In this document: piece after piece, positions 1-11,944 of the stretch
Position numbering within the stretch: the first letter of the stretch is position 1
How the letters are laid out: each line of letters opens with the position of its first letter
Notes under the pieces: model-generated
What the model saw: the letters and a program-made list of their open reading frames with translations, nothing else
Database searches by the model: none
What the model was told of the DNA's origin: nothing
Assembly (NCBI GenBank): GCA_038874215.1
Contig: JAVZCV010000001.1
Location: 72,725-98,416 of the forward strand
Origin: Candidatus Micrarchaeia archaeon
Lineage (GTDB): Archaea; Micrarchaeota; Micrarchaeia; Burarchaeales; JAVZCV01
Length of the DNA: 25,692 nucleotides
Direction of reading: 5' to 3'
Translations under genes and position numbers: made by a program

Positions 1-1310
1 ATTCCGTTCTGAGTTATTGAGACTGAGCATGAAGGAGGCGATGGAACAGAAACAGTATCCACAGGGTCAACAGCAAGCTGTTTATCAACATGCCCGACGC
101 ATGCAACATCGGCATCGTAGTTTATCACGAGTTGCAGATTTCTGTCTCCCGTAGTAGAGAAGTTTGCACTGTATATGAAATCACGAGTGCTGTTTTTCGG
201 AATTGATGCAGGTTTCTGAACTTCTGTTATTGATGCCCCTGTCGATGGTTTCGCCGTGAAATTTGATGCGGTTATTCTCGCATCGGTATCCCCGATGTTC
301 TTAACTGTTATTGTGCAAACGGTTGTTTCCCCTATACCAAGGGTTTTTGGATTGCAGCCTTTTGAAACAACCGAGAGGTTTGGACCGCTTGCCGCACTCA
401 CAACATTCACGATTATGGTTGCAGTTGGAACAGGATTTGGGGGGGATATGGGGAGAATGTTATGCCAGTTGGCATATGTTTTGTAAAGAATCCGGCTATC
501 GCTTACTGCAATATTTCTGCATGCATATGGATTTCCTGGATCAATGATAACGCCCTCGCGGAGACGGGTATACCCGAAGCAGTCTGCGTTCATAGTAGCT
601 GTGAGCTTGTGAATACCTGGTTGGCTCAGAGTTATTTCCATCATACCTGGTGAGGTGATATCGTGCCCTGTTATTGAGTTGCCTGTTGTTTCATCTTTGT
701 AATCAACAGTTCCCTTACATACCACGCCCATCTCCGCAGTGTATGGCCCATACTTTTGGGTAGATGTCACTATCTGCTCGCATGCTGTTCCACTACATGT
801 TCCTGATGGAGTGCAAACACAGCCTGGGCAACCTCCGGGGACTGAACAGTGCATTGCTGCAATACAGCAACCGTAATTGTTAAATACTGTATTCCCTCCC
901 TGACATATCGGGAGGTCATTGAAAAAGGGTATCTTGGCATTTCTGAGCTCAGAATATTTGGTTATGTTCACATACTGTATGGGCGGGCTGTTCGCCGCAC
1001 CACCTTTGAAGTAGTAAGAACCTCCTGGTATTGGCTCTATCCTGACTTTATCCCCAACGCAGAGTGTTGCACCGTTGGAAATAGGGCTCCCCGATACAGA
1101 ATTTTTGAACTGGGGATCAAAGCCTACGGATAGATCTACCCATAGCCAATTGCATAACCCCGTAGGATCTGAAGGACAAGAATTGCCCGACCCAACATCC
1201 CAGGTGAAAAACTGACCATCAACGCTGGAGCTGTCCACATAAACAAAATCTGAGAAGGCGCACAAAATAAGAAGAAATGCAAAGATGAATCCTATCTGCA
1301 GTATGCGCAT
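1..1310 (-). CDS. Secreted Cys-rich surface protein with a CARDB/Ig-like domain; 3' end runs off the window
   Basis: Not in the ORF track. Manual translation from ATG 1310 (upstream GAGGT SD) is open to the window edge: MRILQIGFIFAFLLILCAFS (signal peptide)...CCIAAMHCSVPGGCPGCVCTPSGTCSGTAC...PNLSVVSKGCNPKTLGIGETTVCTITVKNIGD (CARDB/DUF11-like strand pattern). Confidence 0.85.
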   Translation of the reverse strand, partial: MRILQIGFIFAFLLILCAFSDFVYVDSSSVDGQFFTWDVGSGNSCPSDPTGLCNWLWVDLSVGFDPQFKNSVSGSPISNGATLCVGDKVRIEPIPGGSYYFKGGAANSPPIQYVNITKYSELRNAKIPFFNDLPICQGGNTVFNNYGCCIAAMHCSVPGGCPGCVCTPSGTCSGTACEQIVTSTQKYGPYTAEMGVVCKGTVDYKDETTGNSITGHDITSPGMMEITLSQPGIHKLTATMNADCFGYTRLREGVIIDPGNPYACRNIAVSDSRILYKTYANWHNILPISPPNPVPTATIIVNVVSAASGPNLSVVSKGCNPKTLGIGETTVCTITVKNIGDTDARITASNFTAKPSTGASITEVQKPASIPKNSTRDFIYSANFSTTGDRNLQLVINYDADVACVGHVDKQLAVDPVDTVSVPSPPSCSVSITQNG

Positions 1311-3229: not shown

Positions 3230-4525
3230 CTATTTCTTGTTTTTCCTCGTAGCAAGCGACTGGAGCGGTGTAGGCGATTGGGTGGGTTGAACCTCTCCAG
3301 ATGTTTTGGGCTTTTGGAGTGTGCTTTCGTCTAATTTTATGGCATCTATACTTCTGTCAAAAACGACGGTTTCCTTATCGCCCTTTATCACGGTTACCCT
3401 GCCTAGAAGGACAACACCGTCCTTCTGCTCGTATTGGATAGAAAATCTCGCGCCTGCCTCAAAGCCTCCTGCTTTTTCTATTTTCTTTATTAATGCATCC
3501 CTAACTTTTCGCACTTGTTCCTCGTATGCAAGTCTTGTGTTAAGATAGCGCCCTAAATATGCTTCTTCTGTCTCGCCTTCTTTTCTCTGCGGCATTAATA
3601 TATCCACTCCGCAGTCTAGGAGCAACAGGGGTAGCGATTCTCTCACCGCGCCGGATAGCAATCTATCTGGGATTATGACGAATTCCATACTGTCCTCTCG
3701 AGGAAACAGTGTATTAGATGTTGGGGAGATTAACAGCCTCTTCCTATCAAGTTGATGGAGTATAGCGTAATCCTTTGGCGTGAGTTTAAATGACAGGTTT
3801 TTAACTTTACCATCTGCGAGAGCCATCAGGGCTGGGAAGAGATGAACTTCAAATTTTGAGGGGTCAATACCACTATCACGTAGAATGCTTTCTAAGGTAG
3901 TGACGGCGTTTTGCACATCAGCAGGATTCATGGAGATGACGAGTCTCCTGCTATTTTCATCATAAAGTACACGTCCGTGTATATTGGCTTCTCTGAATTT
4001 TTTCATTAACTTTATTCTTAGATCATGAGCGTCAATAGTTTCTGGGACTCTGTAAGAAATTGCACACGTTCGATGGTCATAATCGTGTCTATACAAGCTA
4101 CTAGTGTAAGAAAGCGCCTCCCCAAGTGTTTTGAAAATTTGTTGCCCGTCTATATAGGGATCAGAAAGGGAGGATAGGATGTTAGCGAGTTCCTTAATGG
4201 ATTCACTATCTAATATTCGTGTTGCACCCAACCCGCCCTTAACAGAAACATTGACTGCAATTTTCCCTTCTCTTATAACAATATCATATCTGATGTTGTG
4301 CTCAATCACAAAACGCGCGCTATCTCCTTTAATCAGAATTTCAAACCCATTACATTTGCCTGCGAGGATCTCGCCAAGCAGTCCTGTCGGAACTTCAACA
4401 ACTCTCTGGCCCGGTTTAAGGTTACCCTTTTCTTCCTCTGTAGGCTCTACGAGCAATGCGCCAGGTGGCATTTGGTCGTTAGGATTGAGAACTTTCCGCT
4501 CCGTTATTGGAGCAAACATGCGCAT
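3230..4525 (-). CDS. Hypothetical protein, possibly the C-terminal part of a frameshifted gene with 4479-6812
   Basis: 431-aa ORF with no recognised family. Overlaps the upstream ORF by 47 bp, and its frame stays open for about 20 codons upstream of the ATG. Confidence 0.7.
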   Translation of the reverse strand: MRMFAPITERKVLNPNDQMPPGALLVEPTEEEKGNLKPGQRVVEVPTGLLGEILAGKCNGFEILIKGDSARFVIEHNIRYDIVIREGKIAVNVSVKGGLGATRILDSESIKELANILSSLSDPYIDGQQIFKTLGEALSYTSSLYRHDYDHRTCAISYRVPETIDAHDLRIKLMKKFREANIHGRVLYDENSRRLVISMNPADVQNAVTTLESILRDSGIDPSKFEVHLFPALMALADGKVKNLSFKLTPKDYAILHQLDRKRLLISPTSNTLFPREDSMEFVIIPDRLLSGAVRESLPLLLLDCGVDILMPQRKEGETEEAYLGRYLNTRLAYEEQVRKVRDALIKKIEKAGGFEAGARFSIQYEQKDGVVLLGRVTVIKGDKETVVFDRSIDAIKLDESTLQKPKTSGEVQPTQSPTPLQSLATRKNKK

Positions 4526-6812
4526 TGTACCCTCTGCAACTCTCTCCCCCTGCCTGATTAAGATATTTACTCTCCGCTTCGGAAGGCGTTACTACTTTTT
4601 CACCTTTTTTTGGTTGCTCCCCAGCGGCTAGGATACGCCTGTAAGGCACTTCAACAACACATATCCCCAATGCTTTAAGGTCATCCGTTTGCTCTTTACT
4701 CACGTGCCTTCCATATAAGAACCTGTCCAGCGTAGCCAAAAGGGATGCGTAGGGTATGATTCCCCCGAGCGTTCCACCAATACTTACTGGTATTTGTATT
4801 CCGTCAATATTTATAAAAGCAAATCCAGGCTGTCCAGGGATGCCGCCGATTCCCACACTGGAATTGCGCGATAATCTAGCAAGTTCGGTTGCTGTTGTGA
4901 GATAGAGATTACCGTTTGTGTATATCAGGCCGAAGCTTGAAGTTCTCCCAGAAGGATCGAGGAATGCAAGCTGTCCTGCAACTCCTCCCTGGTATAGTGT
5001 TATGCTTCTTCCTTTATCATCAGCGAGCGTTATGCTCGCTATGGCGCGTAGGTATTCCTCCATGGTCTGCTGGCCTGGTATTGGTTTACCGTCTGATGTA
5101 GTATGATATATTATTCTGGTAATCCTGTACAAAACGCCGCCGATATATGCGCTATAGCCGAGACCAAAATTGGCTATAGGAATGTAAAAAGCACCCAATG
5201 ATTTTATAGAAATACGCTGTAAGGTTCCACCACTAGGACCGCCACCCTGGTTTTGGCCTTCTCCTGGTGCAGGTCCTGGGATTCTGCCGCCACCTCCATC
5301 TCCACCTGGATGAGGTATAATGTTCGGCTGTATTGTATTAATCATGGGTGGCACAATAGGCGTAGTATTTGTTTGTTGACTACCCGCTGGCCCATTAACG
5401 GCTCCACTCATGTTTTGAGGCGTTTCTGGTACGGATAGGGTCTTATTTTTCAGATTAGGAGATTCCACGGAGGGGGTTACAGGCTGGGTTGGTGGGGCTA
5501 CTGGGGATATAACGGGGGTTTCTGGTGTGCGAGGTGTAGGTTCTGGTATAGGTGGAGTTGGGGTTGCTGGAGGGAGTTCGGTTTGCAGTGTGGGCGGAGT
5601 TGCAGTTAACCTATATTCGGGCAGGGTATATGATATACTTTTAAATTGAAATTCATTCCAGCGTGTTTCAACCGTTTTATTACCGATAGTTATGCTTTGT
5701 AGGTATTGGAAAGAGGTATTTTGAACTTCGGCAAGTTTGAGGGCATTTTTATCTCCGCCCACAAGCGCAAGTGCTGCACCATACAAATCGCCTCTCTGAA
5801 ATGCTTCTGTTGCCCTCTGCACGTTTTCATGAACTTTCTTGAGAATGGAATCGCGTTCCTGTTCAAGTTGCCTTCTGTATGCATCAATCAGCTCCTGCCT
5901 TTTTCCTTCGCTTACTCCGCGCTCCTTGATTATCTTATCGTAATCCTCAATTTTGGCTTTTATCTGTACTAAAATTCTTTCTTGCATTGCCTTCTCATGA
6001 TTGGTGATATCAAATATGATACGTTCATAAAGCCTCAGAATTTTGTCTATTTGCTCTTTTGTCATGCCACGCTCCCAAAGCGCGCCCTGAACCCCTCGGC
6101 CGTAAAGAGCGGGATAGTTGGCGTAAGCAACATTAAGGGATGGGTTGGGTTGGTCAAGCATAAGATGGCATACTATTTGCCAAACAGGCACCTCCTTACC
6201 AACGAGCGCCTGCCAGTCTGCCCTTTCTTTGTTGTCCTGTGGTATGGAATCAACGAGTGCCTGTGTTATTGACATCTTCTGTTTTCCAAAAATTTGCTGG
6301 GTTGCCAAAATGGTATATGCAAATGCTTCAATAGGTCTGAACGCCTCTATAAACTCCCCGAGTCGTATTGCGTGGTCATTTCCACGGTCTTTGTTCTTAT
6401 CTCTCTCGGCTCGGAGATATGCGATCGCTAGTAAACTTGATATAGCTCTTGTGAGGTGGCTATGGCCAGATTTTCCACTTTGGTTTTTGTACAGTCCACG
6501 GCTTGTGAATTCTCCATTAGGGAATACCTGTTTGAGGAGTGCGTCTGTGAATGCATTGATGACCGTTGGATTCTGGTCAGGACCTTTTAGAATATGCCAT
6601 TGAAAAGCAAAGGTGTAATCAAAATCCGTTCGCGGATTTTTAGATATGTATTTATAGAATTCACGAACAGCACGGCGGATATATGTAAGTACACCAATCT
6701 CGGTATGGCTCTCAAGTTTGTGCGTTGAAAAATACCAGTTAATCCAATTCAGAACATCCTCAGTGGTCCTTGCATGTTCGGGTAAATTGGGCTTTTGAGC
6801 CTCAACCGGCAT
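4479..6812 (-). CDS. Large hypothetical protein: helical/coiled-coil N-terminus, Pro/Thr- and Gly-rich linker, beta-rich C-terminal region
   Basis: Track ORF 4479-6836. Start moved to ATG 6812 because GGAGGTG lies 5 nt upstream (777 aa). No signal peptide seen. Confidence 0.75.
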   Translation of the reverse strand: MPVEAQKPNLPEHARTTEDVLNWINWYFSTHKLESHTEIGVLTYIRRAVREFYKYISKNPRTDFDYTFAFQWHILKGPDQNPTVINAFTDALLKQVFPNGEFTSRGLYKNQSGKSGHSHLTRAISSLLAIAYLRAERDKNKDRGNDHAIRLGEFIEAFRPIEAFAYTILATQQIFGKQKMSITQALVDSIPQDNKERADWQALVGKEVPVWQIVCHLMLDQPNPSLNVAYANYPALYGRGVQGALWERGMTKEQIDKILRLYERIIFDITNHEKAMQERILVQIKAKIEDYDKIIKERGVSEGKRQELIDAYRRQLEQERDSILKKVHENVQRATEAFQRGDLYGAALALVGGDKNALKLAEVQNTSFQYLQSITIGNKTVETRWNEFQFKSISYTLPEYRLTATPPTLQTELPPATPTPPIPEPTPRTPETPVISPVAPPTQPVTPSVESPNLKNKTLSVPETPQNMSGAVNGPAGSQQTNTTPIVPPMINTIQPNIIPHPGGDGGGGRIPGPAPGEGQNQGGGPSGGTLQRISIKSLGAFYIPIANFGLGYSAYIGGVLYRITRIIYHTTSDGKPIPGQQTMEEYLRAIASITLADDKGRSITLYQGGVAGQLAFLDPSGRTSSFGLIYTNGNLYLTTATELARLSRNSSVGIGGIPGQPGFAFINIDGIQIPVSIGGTLGGIIPYASLLATLDRFLYGRHVSKEQTDDLKALGICVVEVPYRRILAAGEQPKKGEKVVTPSEAESKYLNQAGGESCRGYNAHVCSNNGAESSQS

Positions 6813-7485: not shown

Positions 7486-7635
7486 TGGGGCCGCCGAGAT
7501 TTGAATTACCGGGCCCCTTTCTTTTGCTTTTTAGCAAAGGAAAAAGGCCGCTCGGCTCGCCAGCTTTCCCTAATTTCTTTCTTTTTGAAAGAAATCACCC
7601 GAAGCTGGTAGCATACCAGGCTAGCCCACGGCCCC
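7486..7635 (-). tRNA. tRNA-Pro(CGG) with two introns: 37/38 (7566-7597, 32 nt) and 53/54 (7506-7550, 45 nt)
   Basis: Acceptor GGGGCCG/CGGCCCC+A, anticodon stem CCAGC/GCTGG with loop TT-CGG-G|A, T-stem CCGAG/CTCGG with loop TTCAAAT after removing both inserts. The 53/54 intron has BHB helix GCCG/CGGT with bulges AG|C and AA|T. Confidence 0.9.
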
Positions 7636-7717
7636 CTCGTAGGGGAGGATTCTCCCCCTTCATGTATAACTCGGTAATAGTTATATTGTTATCCGTCCAG
7701 AATAGAGATGTGACAGA

Positions 7718-9547
7718 ATGAAAGAGATGATGGATGTTGTTTGTGAACTTCTCTATGATGCGTGTGTTGCTTCGGGCTACGGGGCGGACCAGCACACAAT
7801 AGAGAGCTCAATAAGAGAAGCGAAGCAGGAATTCGGGGATGTTGCGAGCACGCTTGCGTTTATCATTGCGAAAGAAGCTGGAGAGAGCCCGAAGGATATA
7901 GCGGATGCGATAGTCCAGCATATCAGCGGGCACAAGTATGTTGAGAAAGTAGAGAGCGTGGGCGGGTACATAAACTTTCGGATGAGTGGCGAATTCTTCA
8001 ACAGCGTGATAAATTCCGTTGATGAGAATTTTGGGAGAGGGGATGAGAAGAACACAAAGGTGATTGTTGAATTTCCCTCTGTAAACCCAAACAAGCCGTG
8101 GCATGCTGGTCATGTAAGGAACGCTGTGCTCGGCGACAGCATAGCGAGGATAAAGGAGGCAGATGGATATAGGGTTGAGAGGCTTGACTACATAGATGAT
8201 CTTGGGCTTCAGGTTGCACAGAGTTTCTGGGGTTATTTGAGGAGCGGTGAGAAGATTGAAGGAAAGGCAGACCTGTGGCTTGGGACGGAATACGTGAAGG
8301 TGGCGGGGCAACTTGAAGATGAAAAACTTGCATCAGAAGTGAGAGAATTGATGAAGAAGATGGAGGAGGGCAATAATGAGGTTGCAAGGAAGGCGAGAGA
8401 AGTTGCTGAGATGTGCGTGAGGGCTCAGAGGGAGACGGCTGAGAAGTACGGGATATTCCACGATGTGCTTGTATGGGAGAGCGACCTCGTTTGGTCGGGA
8501 TTGCTGAAAAAGACGCTTGGGAGAATAATGAAAACAAGTATATGCGTGAGGGAGATTGAAGGGGATAATTCGGGATGCATCGTTGCAAAATTGGGGAATG
8601 TTGAGGAATTTGGTGATTTGCAGAACCCCGATAAAATTCTCGTCCGCTCTGACGGAACTGCAACATACACTGGGAAGGATTTGGCGTTTCACATGTGGAA
8701 GTTTGGGCTTATTGATGTTGAGATGAGATATGGGGTTTTCATGTCGCAGAAAAACGGCAAGCCCCTTTACACCACATCGCGCGAAGGAGAGGTTAGAGAT
8801 TTCGGGAAGGCGGATTTGGTTGTTAATGTGATAGGGGTTGAGCAGACGCATGAGCAGAAAGCTGTTGCGGAAATAATGCGGGCGCTCGGCTATGGAAAGG
8901 AAGCGAATGGGATAATCCATGTGGCATACGAGCACGTTGAACTGCCGCAGGAAAAGTTCTCTGGAAGAAAGGGGACATGGGTGGGTTACACTGCTGATGA
9001 ACTGTTTGAGGAAGCAGTCAACAGGGCATACAAGGAGATAAAGGAGAGATTTGTGCTTGAGGAGGAGGAGAAGAAAAAGGTTGCAGAAATCGTTGGCTTG
9101 GCTGCCATCCGCTTCGGCATGCTCCGAGTAAGTCCTGAAAAGAAGATAGTTTTTAGATGGGAGGATGTGCTCAATTTTGAGGGAGACAGCGCCCCGTATA
9201 TACAGTATATGTGCGCAAGAGCGAGAAGGATTATTGAGAAGGCGGAGAGCAGCGGATTTTCGGTAGGAGAATGCAAAGTCGAGGCTGATGAAGAAAAGGG
9301 GCTGGCGAGGCTCATCTCAAAGTTTCCAGATATTGTTCAGAAGGCTTCAAGGGATTGTAGGCCGCATTACATAGCGATGTATCTTCTTGACGTTGCAACC
9401 GCTTTTAGCAAGTTTTATGAGAAGGTGCCCGTGCTGAAAGCAGGTGAGAAAGAAAGAGCAAGCAGGCTGCGGCTTGTTCTTGCCTCTTATATAACTATGA
9501 GGAACGGGCTTGGCCTGCTTGGGATTGAAGTGCCCGAGAAGATGTAA
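7718..9547 (+). CDS. argS: Arginine--tRNA ligase
   Basis: EFPSVNPNKPWHAGH (HIGH-like), RSDGTATY, KFSGRKG, FEGDSAPYIQY and C-terminal PEKM. Confidence 0.97.
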   Translation: MKEMMDVVCELLYDACVASGYGADQHTIESSIREAKQEFGDVASTLAFIIAKEAGESPKDIADAIVQHISGHKYVEKVESVGGYINFRMSGEFFNSVINSVDENFGRGDEKNTKVIVEFPSVNPNKPWHAGHVRNAVLGDSIARIKEADGYRVERLDYIDDLGLQVAQSFWGYLRSGEKIEGKADLWLGTEYVKVAGQLEDEKLASEVRELMKKMEEGNNEVARKAREVAEMCVRAQRETAEKYGIFHDVLVWESDLVWSGLLKKTLGRIMKTSICVREIEGDNSGCIVAKLGNVEEFGDLQNPDKILVRSDGTATYTGKDLAFHMWKFGLIDVEMRYGVFMSQKNGKPLYTTSREGEVRDFGKADLVVNVIGVEQTHEQKAVAEIMRALGYGKEANGIIHVAYEHVELPQEKFSGRKGTWVGYTADELFEEAVNRAYKEIKERFVLEEEEKKKVAEIVGLAAIRFGMLRVSPEKKIVFRWEDVLNFEGDSAPYIQYMCARARRIIEKAESSGFSVGECKVEADEEKGLARLISKFPDIVQKASRDCRPHYIAMYLLDVATAFSKFYEKVPVLKAGEKERASRLRLVLASYITMRNGLGLLGIEVPEKM

Positions 9548-9550
9548 CCA

Positions 9551-9558
9551 TTTATTAA
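9551..9558 (+). promoter_or_regulatory. Putative TATA box of tRNA-Arg
   Basis: TTTATTAA ends about 25 nt upstream of the tRNA 5' end at 9583. Confidence 0.45.
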
Positions 9559-9582
9559 TTTTTTTGACAATTTATTAAAAAA

Positions 9583-9782
9583 GGGCCCGTGGCGCAACCC
9601 GGTAGCCGTTCTTGCTGAAGAAAGGCTGGGTAAATAGCGCAGCAGCCTTCTATCGCATGTTGATGGAGAGGAAGGCGGAAAGCTGACGGTTGTGGGTTCA
9701 AACAATTCTCCTATTGCTGGAGATGGGGAAATTCTGCACCCGCACTATCAAAAAACGGGGATACCCAATCCCACCGGGCCCG
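9583..9782 (+). tRNA. tRNA-Arg(TCT) with three insertions: 19/20 (9603-9633, 31 nt), 37/38 (9653-9680, 28 nt) and T-loop (~9703-9768, 66 nt)
   Basis: Acceptor GGGCCCG/CGGGCCC+G, D-stem GCGC/GCGC, anticodon TCT at 9649-9651, T-stem GTGGG/CCCAC. The D-loop intron has BHB helix ACCC/GGGT with bulges GG|T and AA|A, and splicing gives G18-G19-A20, the Arg identity element. Confidence 0.88.
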
Positions 9783-9804
9783 CTTTTATGCTTGGGGTGA
9801 TCGC

Positions 9805-10083
9805 ATGCAAGCAAATACGAAAGCAAAAAACGTTGAGAAGAAGATTGAAGAAATAATGTCTTTGATGGATATCGTGATAAACGACCTGAGCGTTCCGAAG
9901 AACATAAGGAAGGCTGTAAGCGATGCAAAGGAAAAGTTGCAGAGCGATGACGACCCCGTTCATAAGGCGAGCGCTGCAATATATGCGCTTGATGATGTCA
10001 GCAACGACATAAACATGCCCATCCATGCAAGGACACAGATATGGACTATATTAAGCTCTCTTGAAATGATAAAGGGGGAATGA
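9805..10083 (+). CDS. UPF0147 family protein
   Basis: DLSVPKNIRKA and LDDVSNDINMPIHARTQIW signature. Confidence 0.9.
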   Translation: MQANTKAKNVEKKIEEIMSLMDIVINDLSVPKNIRKAVSDAKEKLQSDDDPVHKASAAIYALDDVSNDINMPIHARTQIWTILSSLEMIKGE

Positions 10084-11552
10084 TGGATTCTTCCGAGCTT
10101 GCGAAAAGTCTGAGTAGCAAGGATATTCTTGTAAGCCCTGACGCTCTGGAATTGCTCTCCAAATATGAAAACGCTCTGGAAATAGTGGACATGATAGCAA
10201 AAAATGAGAGCGCGATCGTCATAACGAAGGAGCATGTTGAGAAGTATGCAAAAAGGGAGGAGAAGATACCCTCATTTGTAGAGGTTGTGCGCTCAAGCGA
10301 TTTCAAGCCTATTGCACGGGAATACGAGCCAGAAATTAGGATATTGGACACGACGGGGAATGGAAATGGTGGATGCAAGGGATCTGTTGAGGATTTCGTG
10401 TCATATTTTAGGGATAGGTATAGGAAAATGGCATCTCTTTTGAGGACGAGGCCAACGAGTGACGGAATAAGCCCATTAAGTTCCCTCCAGGATTACATAA
10501 AAGGAAGGAAGGTGAGGATAATAGGAATAGTTTCAAGCAAGGAAACAACAAAAAACGGGCATATAAAGATAGATCTGGAGGATGAGGACGCCACTGTGCC
10601 AGTTATATTCATGAAGAATTCTCCGTGCTTTGAGGAGGGCAGGAATATTCTTCTTGACGAGGTTGTGGCGATAGATGGCGAGATTTTCAGCCCGCCCGCC
10701 GTTATTGCAAAGCGTGTTGTATGGCCTGACCTGCCGATAAGGGATCAGCCCAAGAGAACGGAGAAGGATATAGCCATCGCATTTTTATCAGACATACATA
10801 TCGGGAGCAAGCATTTTCTCGCAAGGAACTTTGCAAACATGATTTCTTGGCTTAATGGAGCATGGGGTGATAAAAAAGATAGAGAACTGGCTGGAAAAGT
10901 AAAGTATCTTCTCATTGCGGGCGATATCAGCGATGGTGTGGGGATATACCCGAAGCAGGAAAAGGAACTCGTCATAAAAGATATCTACGAACAGTATAAA
11001 ATGTTCTGCGATCTGATGAAGGGCATCCCGGACTATGTAGAGGTTATCGTAGCACCGGGCAACCACGATGCTGTCAGGAGGGCAGAGCCACAACCGAGAT
11101 TGCCAAAAGAGTTGGTTGACGAAGCATGCATACGCTCTGTTGATAACCCATGCAGGATGGAAATTGAAGGGCTCAAAACCCTGATGTATCATGGAACATC
11201 GCTTGACTCAATAATCGCGGCTTTGCCAAACATGAGTTATGAGACGCCCGAGAAGGCGATGATAGAACTGCTTAAAAGGAGGCACCTCAGCCCGATATAC
11301 GGGGAAAACCCGATAGTTCCTGAGAATAGGGATAGGATGATTATAGCAGAGGAGCCAGATATCGTCCATATGGGGCATATACACAAAAACGGGTATGAAA
11401 CATATAGAGGGGCAGTTGTGATAAATTCGGGAACATGGCAGGATAGGACTGATTTTCAAATAAAACAGGGGCATATGCCAACGCCTTGTTTGTTGCCCGT
11501 TTATGAGGCGAAGTACGGCAAAATCAACGTAATAGATTTTACGTCTGCATAG
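10080..11552 (+). CDS. polB: DNA polymerase D small (3'-5' exonuclease) subunit DP1
   Basis: OB-fold (LEDEDATV, LLDEVVAIDG) plus intact calcineurin-like motifs SDIHIGS, GDISDG, PGNHD, YHG and GHIH. ATGA overlap with the upstream gene. Confidence 0.96.
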   Translation: MMDSSELAKSLSSKDILVSPDALELLSKYENALEIVDMIAKNESAIVITKEHVEKYAKREEKIPSFVEVVRSSDFKPIAREYEPEIRILDTTGNGNGGCKGSVEDFVSYFRDRYRKMASLLRTRPTSDGISPLSSLQDYIKGRKVRIIGIVSSKETTKNGHIKIDLEDEDATVPVIFMKNSPCFEEGRNILLDEVVAIDGEIFSPPAVIAKRVVWPDLPIRDQPKRTEKDIAIAFLSDIHIGSKHFLARNFANMISWLNGAWGDKKDRELAGKVKYLLIAGDISDGVGIYPKQEKELVIKDIYEQYKMFCDLMKGIPDYVEVIVAPGNHDAVRRAEPQPRLPKELVDEACIRSVDNPCRMEIEGLKTLMYHGTSLDSIIAALPNMSYETPEKAMIELLKRRHLSPIYGENPIVPENRDRMIIAEEPDIVHMGHIHKNGYETYRGAVVINSGTWQDRTDFQIKQGHMPTPCLLPVYEAKYGKINVIDFTSA

Positions 11553-11612
11553 TTCCTTTTTGGCACAGGAAAGAAATAAATACAGCGTCAGAGGAATAAT
11601 AGCGGGATCTTT

Positions 11613-11798
11613 ATGAAGGATGAGGTAGATGTTAGCGATATCACGATGGTGAGGTGCGCTTGCGGCTGGGTTGGTTTCAGGTTCCAGAGGGGGGAAGAAG
11701 CCAAGGTACTTGATGATATAGGAGTTAAGGACATAAACGATGAAGACGTGGAGATGATTGAAAAGAGAAGATGTCCGAACTGCGGATACGAGTTTTAG
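11613..11798 (+). CDS. Small zinc-ribbon protein
   Basis: 61 aa with CxCGW and CPxCG knuckles. Fills the gap between DP1 and tRNA-Val. Confidence 0.7.
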   Translation: MKDEVDVSDITMVRCACGWVGFRFQRGEEAKVLDDIGVKDINDEDVEMIEKRRCPNCGYEF

Positions 11799-11831
11799 AC
11801 TGCACATATGCGAATGTGCTTCAAAGAATAA

Positions 11832-11944
11832 TGGGCCCGCAGGGAATCGAACCCTGAATCTTCACTGCTCTCAATCGTTGTGCTTTCTTTTGGCCGCCCA
11901 AAAGAAAATGTGAGAGTGACGTCTTACCATTCGACCACGGGCCC
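11832..11944 (-). tRNA. tRNA-Val(CAC) with a 41-nt intron at 37/38 (11868-11908)
   Basis: Acceptor GGGCCCG/CGGGCCC+A, anticodon stem TCACT/AGTGA, T-arm CAGGG-TTCGATT-CCCTG. BHB-like helix CTCA/TGAG with bulges CA|T and AG|C. Confidence 0.93.

Follow-up and report, generated by a model that had tools for sequence, protein, structure and literature searches.

Transposed tRNA introns were reportedly described for the Thermoproteales by Fujishima et al. in 2010 (Mol Biol Evol 27:2233). For the same group, intron families that run across tRNA types are described in the accessible parts of two further sources (PMC4033280 and a 2026 Asgard preprint), and the criterion for membership given in the accessible part of the preprint is an identity of about 80%. 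In the archaeon ARMAN-2, as far as the available portions of the papers go, tRNA-Pro has a very weak D stem and introns are located at positions 53/54 and 59/60 (PMC3239211), and the splicing endonuclease EndA (4FZ2) is a three-unit epsilon2 enzyme of broad specificity, acting on strict as well as relaxed motifs (PMC3488258, PMC3239211). The gain of archaeal tRNA introns is unsettled, and in the literature searched it is for the Thermoproteales alone that related introns are documented at different sites.

The DNA analyzed here is a stretch of 25,692 nt, referred to as the window, from the genome of a Candidatus Micrarchaeia archaeon (G000; 38 contigs, 91% complete), and its interrupted tRNA genes, for Pro(CGG), Arg(UCU) and Val(CAC), are the subject of this study. 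An earlier note, made from the letters of the window only, had proposed that their introns belong to a lineage-specific family that is spreading by reverse splicing or recombination. It is found here, with a probability of roughly 0.72, that the introns of the window are old, inherited and protein-spliced, and that some of them are built on a hairpin element which has been copied between tRNA sites and into the 23S rRNA gene. The mobile-looking family proposed in the note is real. The introns of the window are old copies that qualify at best as degenerate members of it, and no kinship is supported for the pair that had been singled out, Pro 53/54 and Arg 19/20.

Related introns in tRNA and 23S rRNA genes

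The claim that related introns occur at different positions of different tRNAs holds when the whole genome is considered. Five introns, located at 15/16 of tRNA-Gly(UCC), tRNA-Gly(GCC) and tRNA-Glu(UUC), at 37/38 of tRNA-Leu(CAA) and, as a 59-nt insert, in the 23S rRNA gene, have a mean column identity of 82% over about 58 nt (alignment A3). In BLAST searches with the tRNA-Gly(GCC) gene, the matches are the Glu(UUC) gene (E 2.5e-12, 86%), the Leu 37/38 intron (E 2.4e-9, 89%) and the 23S intron (E 1.6e-8, 88%). The five-member family is above the level of about 80% used for intron families, both by its column identity and by the BLAST identities of 86-89%, and it reaches this level across 15/16, 37/38 and 23S sites. 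The search of rRNA for the same hairpin, which the earlier note had recommended, thus located it in 23S, with one copy being 88% identical to a tRNA intron.

In the bulge-helix-bulge (BHB) motif as used here, a 4-bp helix (H) is located between two 3-nt bulges, each of which is cut after its second base; this rule was derived from the Val 37/38 and Pro 53/54 introns. By reading, the layout of the family introns is as follows: the first intron base, a pyrimidine arm, a loop and a first copy of the purine arm make up the 5' part, and these are followed by a (C/A)ATCAAAAG-type linker, a second copy of the purine arm, the 4-nt H strand and AA. Either of the two purine copies is a possible partner of the pyrimidine arm, and pairing with the distal copy places the resulting helix beside H. 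The lowest-energy fold has the distal pairing in the Gly(GCC) and 23S copies, and the proximal hairpin in the Glu and Leu copies. The H strands vary by site (GGAC, GGGC, AGAG and GTAC).

The hairpin is also seen beyond these five introns. The pattern TTTCTTTN{1,16}AAAGAAA has 17 matches per strand in the genome, at 15 loci, and the reversed polarity (AAAGAAA..TTTCTTT) has none. By eye, 10 of these loci are tRNA introns, two are in 23S, two are C/D-box-like and one is coding-like DNA. A covariance model (R1) was built from the five A3 introns and, in G000, scored on 150 of 870 candidates. Its weaker matches are mostly introns, namely Trp 37/38 (E 0.066), a 23S hairpin, Ala(UGC) 37/38, Pro(CGG) 37/38 (E 2.5), Pro(UGG) 37/38, Leu 21/22 and Gly(UCC) 53/54; among the R1 matches at E<=10 for these scored candidates there is no intergenic copy. 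Weak matches on contigs C19, C17 and C5 lie in coding-like sequence and were taken as chance. The near-exclusive location in stable-RNA genes, together with the lack of intergenic copies among the scored matches, argues against random insertion at the DNA level.

The 23S gene (LSU match) on contig C14 has at least four small inserts, of about 45, 59, 35 and 43 nt. The first two are visible in the Rfam alignment, where the family intron appears as 62 nt at a place where the model has 3, and the fold of this 59-nt intron has an H helix of GUAC/GUAC. The 35-nt insert, which is the 23S hairpin match of R1, has by reading an H helix of TGTC/GACA with AA|A bulges. A contig from the DNA run is contiguous over positions 3250-4157 of the corresponding locus (L117) with no differences. 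A contig from an RNA library of another study, matched over 374 nt with 3 mismatches, skips positions 3425-3459 (35 nt) and 3623-3665 (43 nt), both of which are present in the DNA contig. This supports the splicing of two of the 23S inserts, although the RNA contig could also be derived from a strain whose DNA lacks both of them, which weighs against this interpretation. Joints that skip the 59-nt intron have short sides (21-25 nt), and joined forms skipping 61 and 64 nt are also found in the DNA run; these joints may come from intronless relatives.

Two non-coding loci (L080 and L079) carry the hairpin-plus-tail module. By reading, the module is located there between a guide-sRNA-like C box/D' box and a C' box/D box, and neither locus has an Rfam match. 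A second look-alike group is seen by eye in the T-loop introns at 59/60 of tRNA-Gly and tRNA-Glu genes, which start with GCAGCTTTTT..GCTGC and end with ..CTGGAA or CTGAAAA. The tRNA-Pro(GGG) gene, also parsed by eye, has three introns: at 32/33 there is one of 42 nt with an H helix of CCGG/CCGG, at 37/38 a mini-intron of 13 nt whose H helix is CTGG/CCAG, and at 53/54 one of 31 nt. When the genome is searched by BLAST with the 53/54 intron of Pro(UGG), the only match is a weak one, to the Glu(CUC) 53/54 intron (E 0.077).

The tRNA genes of the window and the age of their introns

The three interrupted genes and the six inserts reported in the earlier note are recovered by an intron-aware parser, which is anchored on the acceptor stem, fits the other three arms (T, D and anticodon) while allowing for inserts, and includes a splice-motif score. 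The scores are 32.0 for Pro(CGG), 30.5 for Arg(UCU) and 30.0 for Val(CAC), the best false parse having a score of 26.0. ARAGORN, run with default settings, finds no tRNA gene in the window, and the Rfam tRNA model RF00005 finds only Val(CAC) (58.6 bits, with a 43-nt gap). Because of such interrupted genes, no more than 15-16 tRNA genes are detected by the standard finders in the genome as a whole. As parsed, the spliced products of all three genes are complete in each arm (acceptor, D, anticodon and T) and have U33, R37 and TTCRA; the D stem of tRNA-Pro(CGG) is weak (GGCT/TGCT). These are three genuine tRNA genes of the multi-intron kind, from a Micrarchaeota-like (ARMAN-2-like) archaeon.

Five of the six inserts fit the strict or the relaxed BHB motif. 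The H helix has 4/4 pairs in Pro 53/54 (GCCG/CGGT; a strict motif with a long h' helix), in Arg 19/20 (ACCC/GGGT, where the outer helix is the D stem) and in Val 37/38 (CTCA/TGAG, with an internal TTTCTTTTGG/CCAAAAGAAA hairpin), as found by the parser and, for the first two, by folding. Pro 37/38 has 3/4 pairs and a relaxed motif, and its fold comprises a 7-bp stem, a 4x4 loop and an 11-bp pyrimidine/purine hairpin (fold z -4.47). Arg 37/38 also has 3/4 pairs, without a pyrimidine/purine hairpin. The exception is the T-loop insert of tRNA-Arg, which has 2/4 H pairs, a fold z of -0.77 and no convincing BHB motif, and for which BLAST against the genome returns only the self-match. The note's observation that five of the six inserts end in AA is borne out, Val with its AG being the sixth; most introns of the genome, as read by eye, end in AA.

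A single endonuclease gene is present, and residues 177-558 of its product match residues 6-387 of 4fz2_A (E 3.7e-138). This near full-length match answers the question of the EndA type raised in the earlier note: judged by sequence, the host EndA is an ARMAN-2-type epsilon2 enzyme. A gene for RtcB is also present (E 4.3e-177). Excision by the epsilon2 EndA and joining by RtcB can be inferred from these genes by analogy with the published ARMAN-2 enzymology. In the precursor, four exon nucleotides would pair with four nucleotides near the 3' end of the intron, forming the H helix, next to which the intron hairpin would stack (the h' helix); both bulges would then be cut by the epsilon2 endonuclease, and RtcB would join the exons.

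The likeness among the window introns goes beyond chance only in part. The TTTCTTT/AAAGAAA stems described for Pro 37/38 and Val 37/38 are present, and TTTCTTTN{1,16}AAAGAAA has 3 matches in the window, at precisely these two loci, where 0.03 are expected; none of 100 window shuffles reaches 3 matches. Pro 37/38 also contains the exact 17-mer TTTCTTTCAAAAAGAAA, which is the core of three of the family introns, at 37/38 of Leu(CAA) and at 15/16 of Glu(UUC) and Gly(GCC). For Pro 53/54 and Val 37/38, the common word CAAAAGAAAG is indeed found in the window in precisely these two introns (expected 0.14; 1 of 100 shuffles reaches 2), but the word is frequent in the genome at large (21 copies, versus 14 of its backwards control), which weighs against using it as a mark of kinship. 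A related 37/38 intron is present in the Val(GAC) paralogue on C12.

The other claimed kinship, between Pro 53/54 and Arg 19/20, did not survive the comparison. The strings quoted for the two introns are present, but their likeness does not go beyond constraint: BLAST of the whole tRNA genes gives no Pro/Arg cross-match at E<=0.01, neither intron matches R1 at E<=10, and the GGTAA that they have in common is present because an exon-complementary 4-nt H strand is followed there by the AA bulge. The two introns are not demonstrably related. It is possible to extend this explanation to all the likenesses, by assuming convergence only: a stable hairpin beside a 4-bp helix would become U-rich and A-rich in an A+T-leaning genome, with neither descent nor mobility. 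This is in agreement with the motif-dictated bases and the missing cross-match of the Pro/Arg pair, with H strands that co-vary with the exons, and with the fold of Arg 19/20, which is no more stable than that of shuffled sequences (z -0.42). It leaves unexplained, however, the 15 loci of one polarity versus none of the other, the 17-mer that is exact in four introns, and the fact that introns at three kinds of site are 82% identical over about 58 nt, with BLAST E values down to 1e-9. Convergence is refuted for the genome-wide family, and as an account of the whole it is very improbable.

The window introns are therefore best described as being alike through splice-motif constraint, with an exon-dictated H strand and an AA 3' bulge, and through a common building block, the TTTCTTT..AAAGAAA hairpin, which is often followed by a CAAAAGAAAG-type tail and is the mark of the intron family seen in this genome and its class. 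Judged by its sequence, Pro 37/38 would be a short family member. Degenerate membership is probable for Val 37/38 and Pro 53/54, Arg 19/20 is only possibly a member, and no family signal was found in Arg 37/38 or in the Arg T-loop insert.

The age of these introns was assessed in 40 related genomes, 28 of the same order and 12 of the same class, none of them of the same family. Two of these, G004 and G014, are from one genus of another family of the same order. When the Arg(UCU) genes are aligned, introns are found in both at all three of the sites that are occupied in the window gene, with 46- and 52-nt introns at the T-loop site, and the Pro(CGG) genes have introns at both window sites (37/38 and 53/54). 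The H helix of Arg 19/20 co-varies with the exon, being ACCC/GGGT in G000 and GCCT/GGGC in G004 and G014, and the orthologous Arg 19/20 introns are less than half identical. The Pro 37/38 introns of G004 and of the window are both 32 nt long, both have a TTAGGRAA tail and show compensatory stem changes. In G000, each of the three Pro isoacceptor genes has an intron at 53/54. Since five of the six window introns are located at the same sites in another family, they are old and vertically inherited, as judged from these alignments, and not recent. The recent spread suggested earlier for the window introns is thus contradicted; identical positions across distant relatives had been named in the note itself as a sign of ancient vertical inheritance.

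Table 1. Locations of the window features (numbered from the first letter of the window) and of the loci elsewhere in G000 and in related genomes
Feature	Location	Strand	Length	Remarks
tRNA-Pro(CGG) gene	7486-7635	-		two introns; exons 7598-7635, 7551-7565, 7486-7505
Pro 37/38 intron	7566-7597	-	32 nt	
Pro 53/54 intron	7506-7550	-	45 nt	
tRNA-Arg(UCU) gene	9583-9782	+		three inserts
Arg 19/20 intron	9603-9633	+	31 nt	
Arg 37/38 intron	9653-9680	+	28 nt	
Arg T-loop insert, about 59/60	9703-9768	+	66 nt	boundaries and intron number uncertain
tRNA-Val(CAC) gene	11832-11944	-		one intron; Rfam and parser
Val 37/38 intron	11868-11908	-	41 nt	
Arginyl-tRNA synthetase gene	7718-9547			Pfam matches
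UPF0147 protein gene	9805-10083			
DNA polymerase small-subunit-like protein gene	10080-11552			
Open reading frame	11613-11798	+	61 aa	no Pfam family matched
23S inserts	G000:C14:3954-3999, 4054-4112, 5724-5758, 5922-5964			L076, L077, L117
C/D-box-like locus with module	G000:C1:23114-23169			L080
C/D-box-like locus with module	G000:C38:243-291			L079
tRNA-Pro(GGG)	G000:C6:30036-30195			L062; by eye
Gly(CCC), 59/60 group	C4:39764-39915			L114
Gly(UCC), 59/60 group	C14:2440-2500			L102
Glu(UUC), 59/60 group	C2:75728-75766			L074
Glu(CUC), 59/60 group	C1			L081
Unit of about 30 nt upstream of tRNA genes	L085:1380-1470			G017
Unit of about 30 nt upstream of tRNA genes	L066:~205-235			G013

Among the neighbors of the tRNA genes (Table 1), the arginyl-tRNA synthetase gene is on the same strand as tRNA-Arg(UCU), which starts 35 nt 3' of it. 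The 61-residue open reading frame just upstream of tRNA-Val has two Cys-x-x-Cys-like pairs, suggesting a zinc ribbon. Oligo-T is an archaeal transcription termination signal, and it is odd that runs of at least five T are located within tRNA genes, in the pyrimidine arms of the introns, at 7536-7545 of the window and in several introns elsewhere.

Movement of the family and its possible routes

The family is not specific to one lineage, as the earlier note had supposed: R1 has matches at E<=0.05 in 14 of the 40 relatives, in 10 of 18 families, across the order and the class. All six of the matches that were read by eye lie in tRNA introns, which are at 37/38 of Gly(CCC) in G009 and G013, at 37/38 of Pro(CGG) in G014, at 21/22 of Leu(CAA) in G017 and, in G031, in the T loop of Pro(GGG) and in a Ser-like tRNA with three copies of the module. 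The Rfam search misses the multi-intron tRNAs of these relatives, finding one unrelated tRNA in 11 loci and none in 3 loci. The occupied sites differ between genomes: Gly(CCC) has an intron at 37/38 in G009 and G013 and not in G000, the intron of Leu(CAA) is at 37/38 in G000 and at 30/31, not 37/38, in G017, and a Pro(CGG) 21/22 intron is found only in G004 and G014, not in G000. Given these differences among orthologues, and the near-identical copies at 15/16, at 37/38 and in 23S, the family looks mobile and, judged from the sequences compared, appears to have moved.

The helix is preserved by covariation. In 24 distinct model-aligned rows, 96.6% of the positions considered are paired, and two-sided changes are seen in 10 of 13 pairs; values as high do not occur in 500 shuffles, the slid controls are far lower, and the core pairs are almost only U-A or C-G. 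G-U intermediates, as inferred, would keep the pyrimidine/purine polarity, and the polarity therefore marks shared descent. A separate unit of about 30 nt (GGGAGTTCTTAAAAGAACCGTAGG...) is seen directly upstream of tRNA genes in G017, where three are in tandem, and in G013; it may be a leader or promoter repeat.

It is also possible that the introns themselves never moved, and that a short palindrome resembling REP, RPE or MITE sequences inserted at the DNA level and persisted where it did no harm, mostly within introns that were already there. REP and the Rickettsia palindromic elements are short hairpin repeats scattered in small genomes, including their RNA genes. Such a passenger would account for the finding that only the hairpin-plus-tail is common and the H strands vary by site, for module-sized indels among orthologues within one genus (Pro 37/38 has 32 nt in G004 versus 57 nt in G014) and for the copies at the two loci that are neither tRNA nor rRNA. 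But no plain intergenic copy was found in G000, where the three weak matches outside RNA genes look coding and due to chance, and the likeness of the 15/16 and 23S introns spans nearly the whole intron, leaving no older intron around the module. This explanation is rather doubtful.

The alternative that the module is a functional RNA element, in which selection keeps the hairpin plus tail, for example as the site of a maturation factor or as an aid to precursor folding, is suggested by its uneven conservation. The Leu 37/38 intron of G000 and the Gly(CCC) 37/38 intron of G009, from different families, differ at about 3 of 42 positions, corresponding to about 93% identity by our own count (alignment A6 used without the G004 and G014 rows), compared with less than half for the orthologous Arg 19/20 introns. 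The location of 14 of the 15 hairpin loci in stable-RNA genes and the covariation that preserves the helix are in agreement with such a function. Against it, many tRNA introns of the same genome, such as those of Arg(CCU), Asp and Thr, are without the hairpin module, the module has been gained and lost among orthologues, and no partner protein is known. Selection on a functional module is an unlikely explanation of the whole.

For a family that was copied between sites, two routes are considered. Cut and ligated RNA ends may have been rejoined into another endonuclease site and then copied to DNA, or the copying or recombination may have occurred at the DNA level; each of these has somewhat less than an even chance, and some other route would be distinctly unlikely. 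The reverse transcriptase family PF00078 has no match in the 91%-complete genome, which weakens the reverse-splicing route and counts against RNA-level spread. Gene conversion was rejected as a full explanation; it fits the Gly and Glu copies, whose genes have like D and T arms, and not the Leu 37/38 or 23S copies.

Several further points weigh against old introns drawn in part from a copied family. Beyond the window, most tRNA parses were done by eye, and the scoring of 150 of the 870 candidates by R1 may have missed intergenic copies. No window intron matched R1 at E<=0.01, the value for Pro 37/38 being only 2.5 genome-wide, and the kinship of Leu 21/22 to the Pro(UGG) 53/54 intron, seen by eye, was not recovered by BLAST and was rejected. 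The alignment used for the covariation is model-fitted, and among its rows are the 5 used for training and a few reads of the opposite strand. The tRNA genes are not covered by the RNA runs, so that tRNA splicing was not observed.

A more far-reaching proposal, tentative and somewhat doubtful, is that the hairpin-plus-tail is an intron-generating mobile element of Micrarchaeota, using the chemistry of the host endonuclease and ligase. If so, the module would enter whatever abundant RNA has a 4-nt site for pairing and would give rise to new spliceable introns in tRNA, rRNA and small guide-RNA genes, and it would be an archaeal counterpart of the eukaryotic 'introner' elements.

Comparison with known systems

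In the literature searched, no shared intron module is described for Micrarchaeota and no small BHB introns for the 23S of DPANN archaea; the ARMAN-2 supplements, which were outside the search, might show the module. A second, unrelated lineage with another endonuclease type, having a sharply defined module, copies in 23S as well as tRNA genes and visible differences in site occupancy, would make intron gain testable.

The closest organism is Candidatus Micrarchaeum acidiphilum ARMAN-2, in which, according to the accessible portions of the papers, there are likewise introns at 53/54 and 59/60, a weak tRNA-Pro D stem, multi-intron genes and the same kind of EndA (PMC3239211, PMC3488258). These portions give positions and enzyme specificity, and not sequence families common to several introns or to introns and rRNA. 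The small, protein-spliced BHB introns in the rRNA genes of Thermoproteales, as described in the available part of PMC4496867, are similar to the 23S inserts, but those found here, of 35-59 nt, are in the 23S gene of a DPANN-type archaeon, and one of them is 88% identical to a tRNA intron. Unlike REP and the Rickettsia palindromic elements, the copies are almost only in spliced or stable-RNA contexts.

The closest parallel for the family itself is provided by the tRNA introns of Thermoproteales, where, as far as the sources at hand describe them, similar BHB introns are also found across tRNA species and positions in the presence of a host endonuclease of broad specificity. The differences from that system are the phylum and the enzyme, which is a single-chain epsilon2 protein here and alpha2beta2 in Thermoproteales; the shared unit, which here is a short pyrimidine/purine hairpin plus tail that is found also in 23S and at two C/D-box-like loci; and the conservation of the family here across families of a class.

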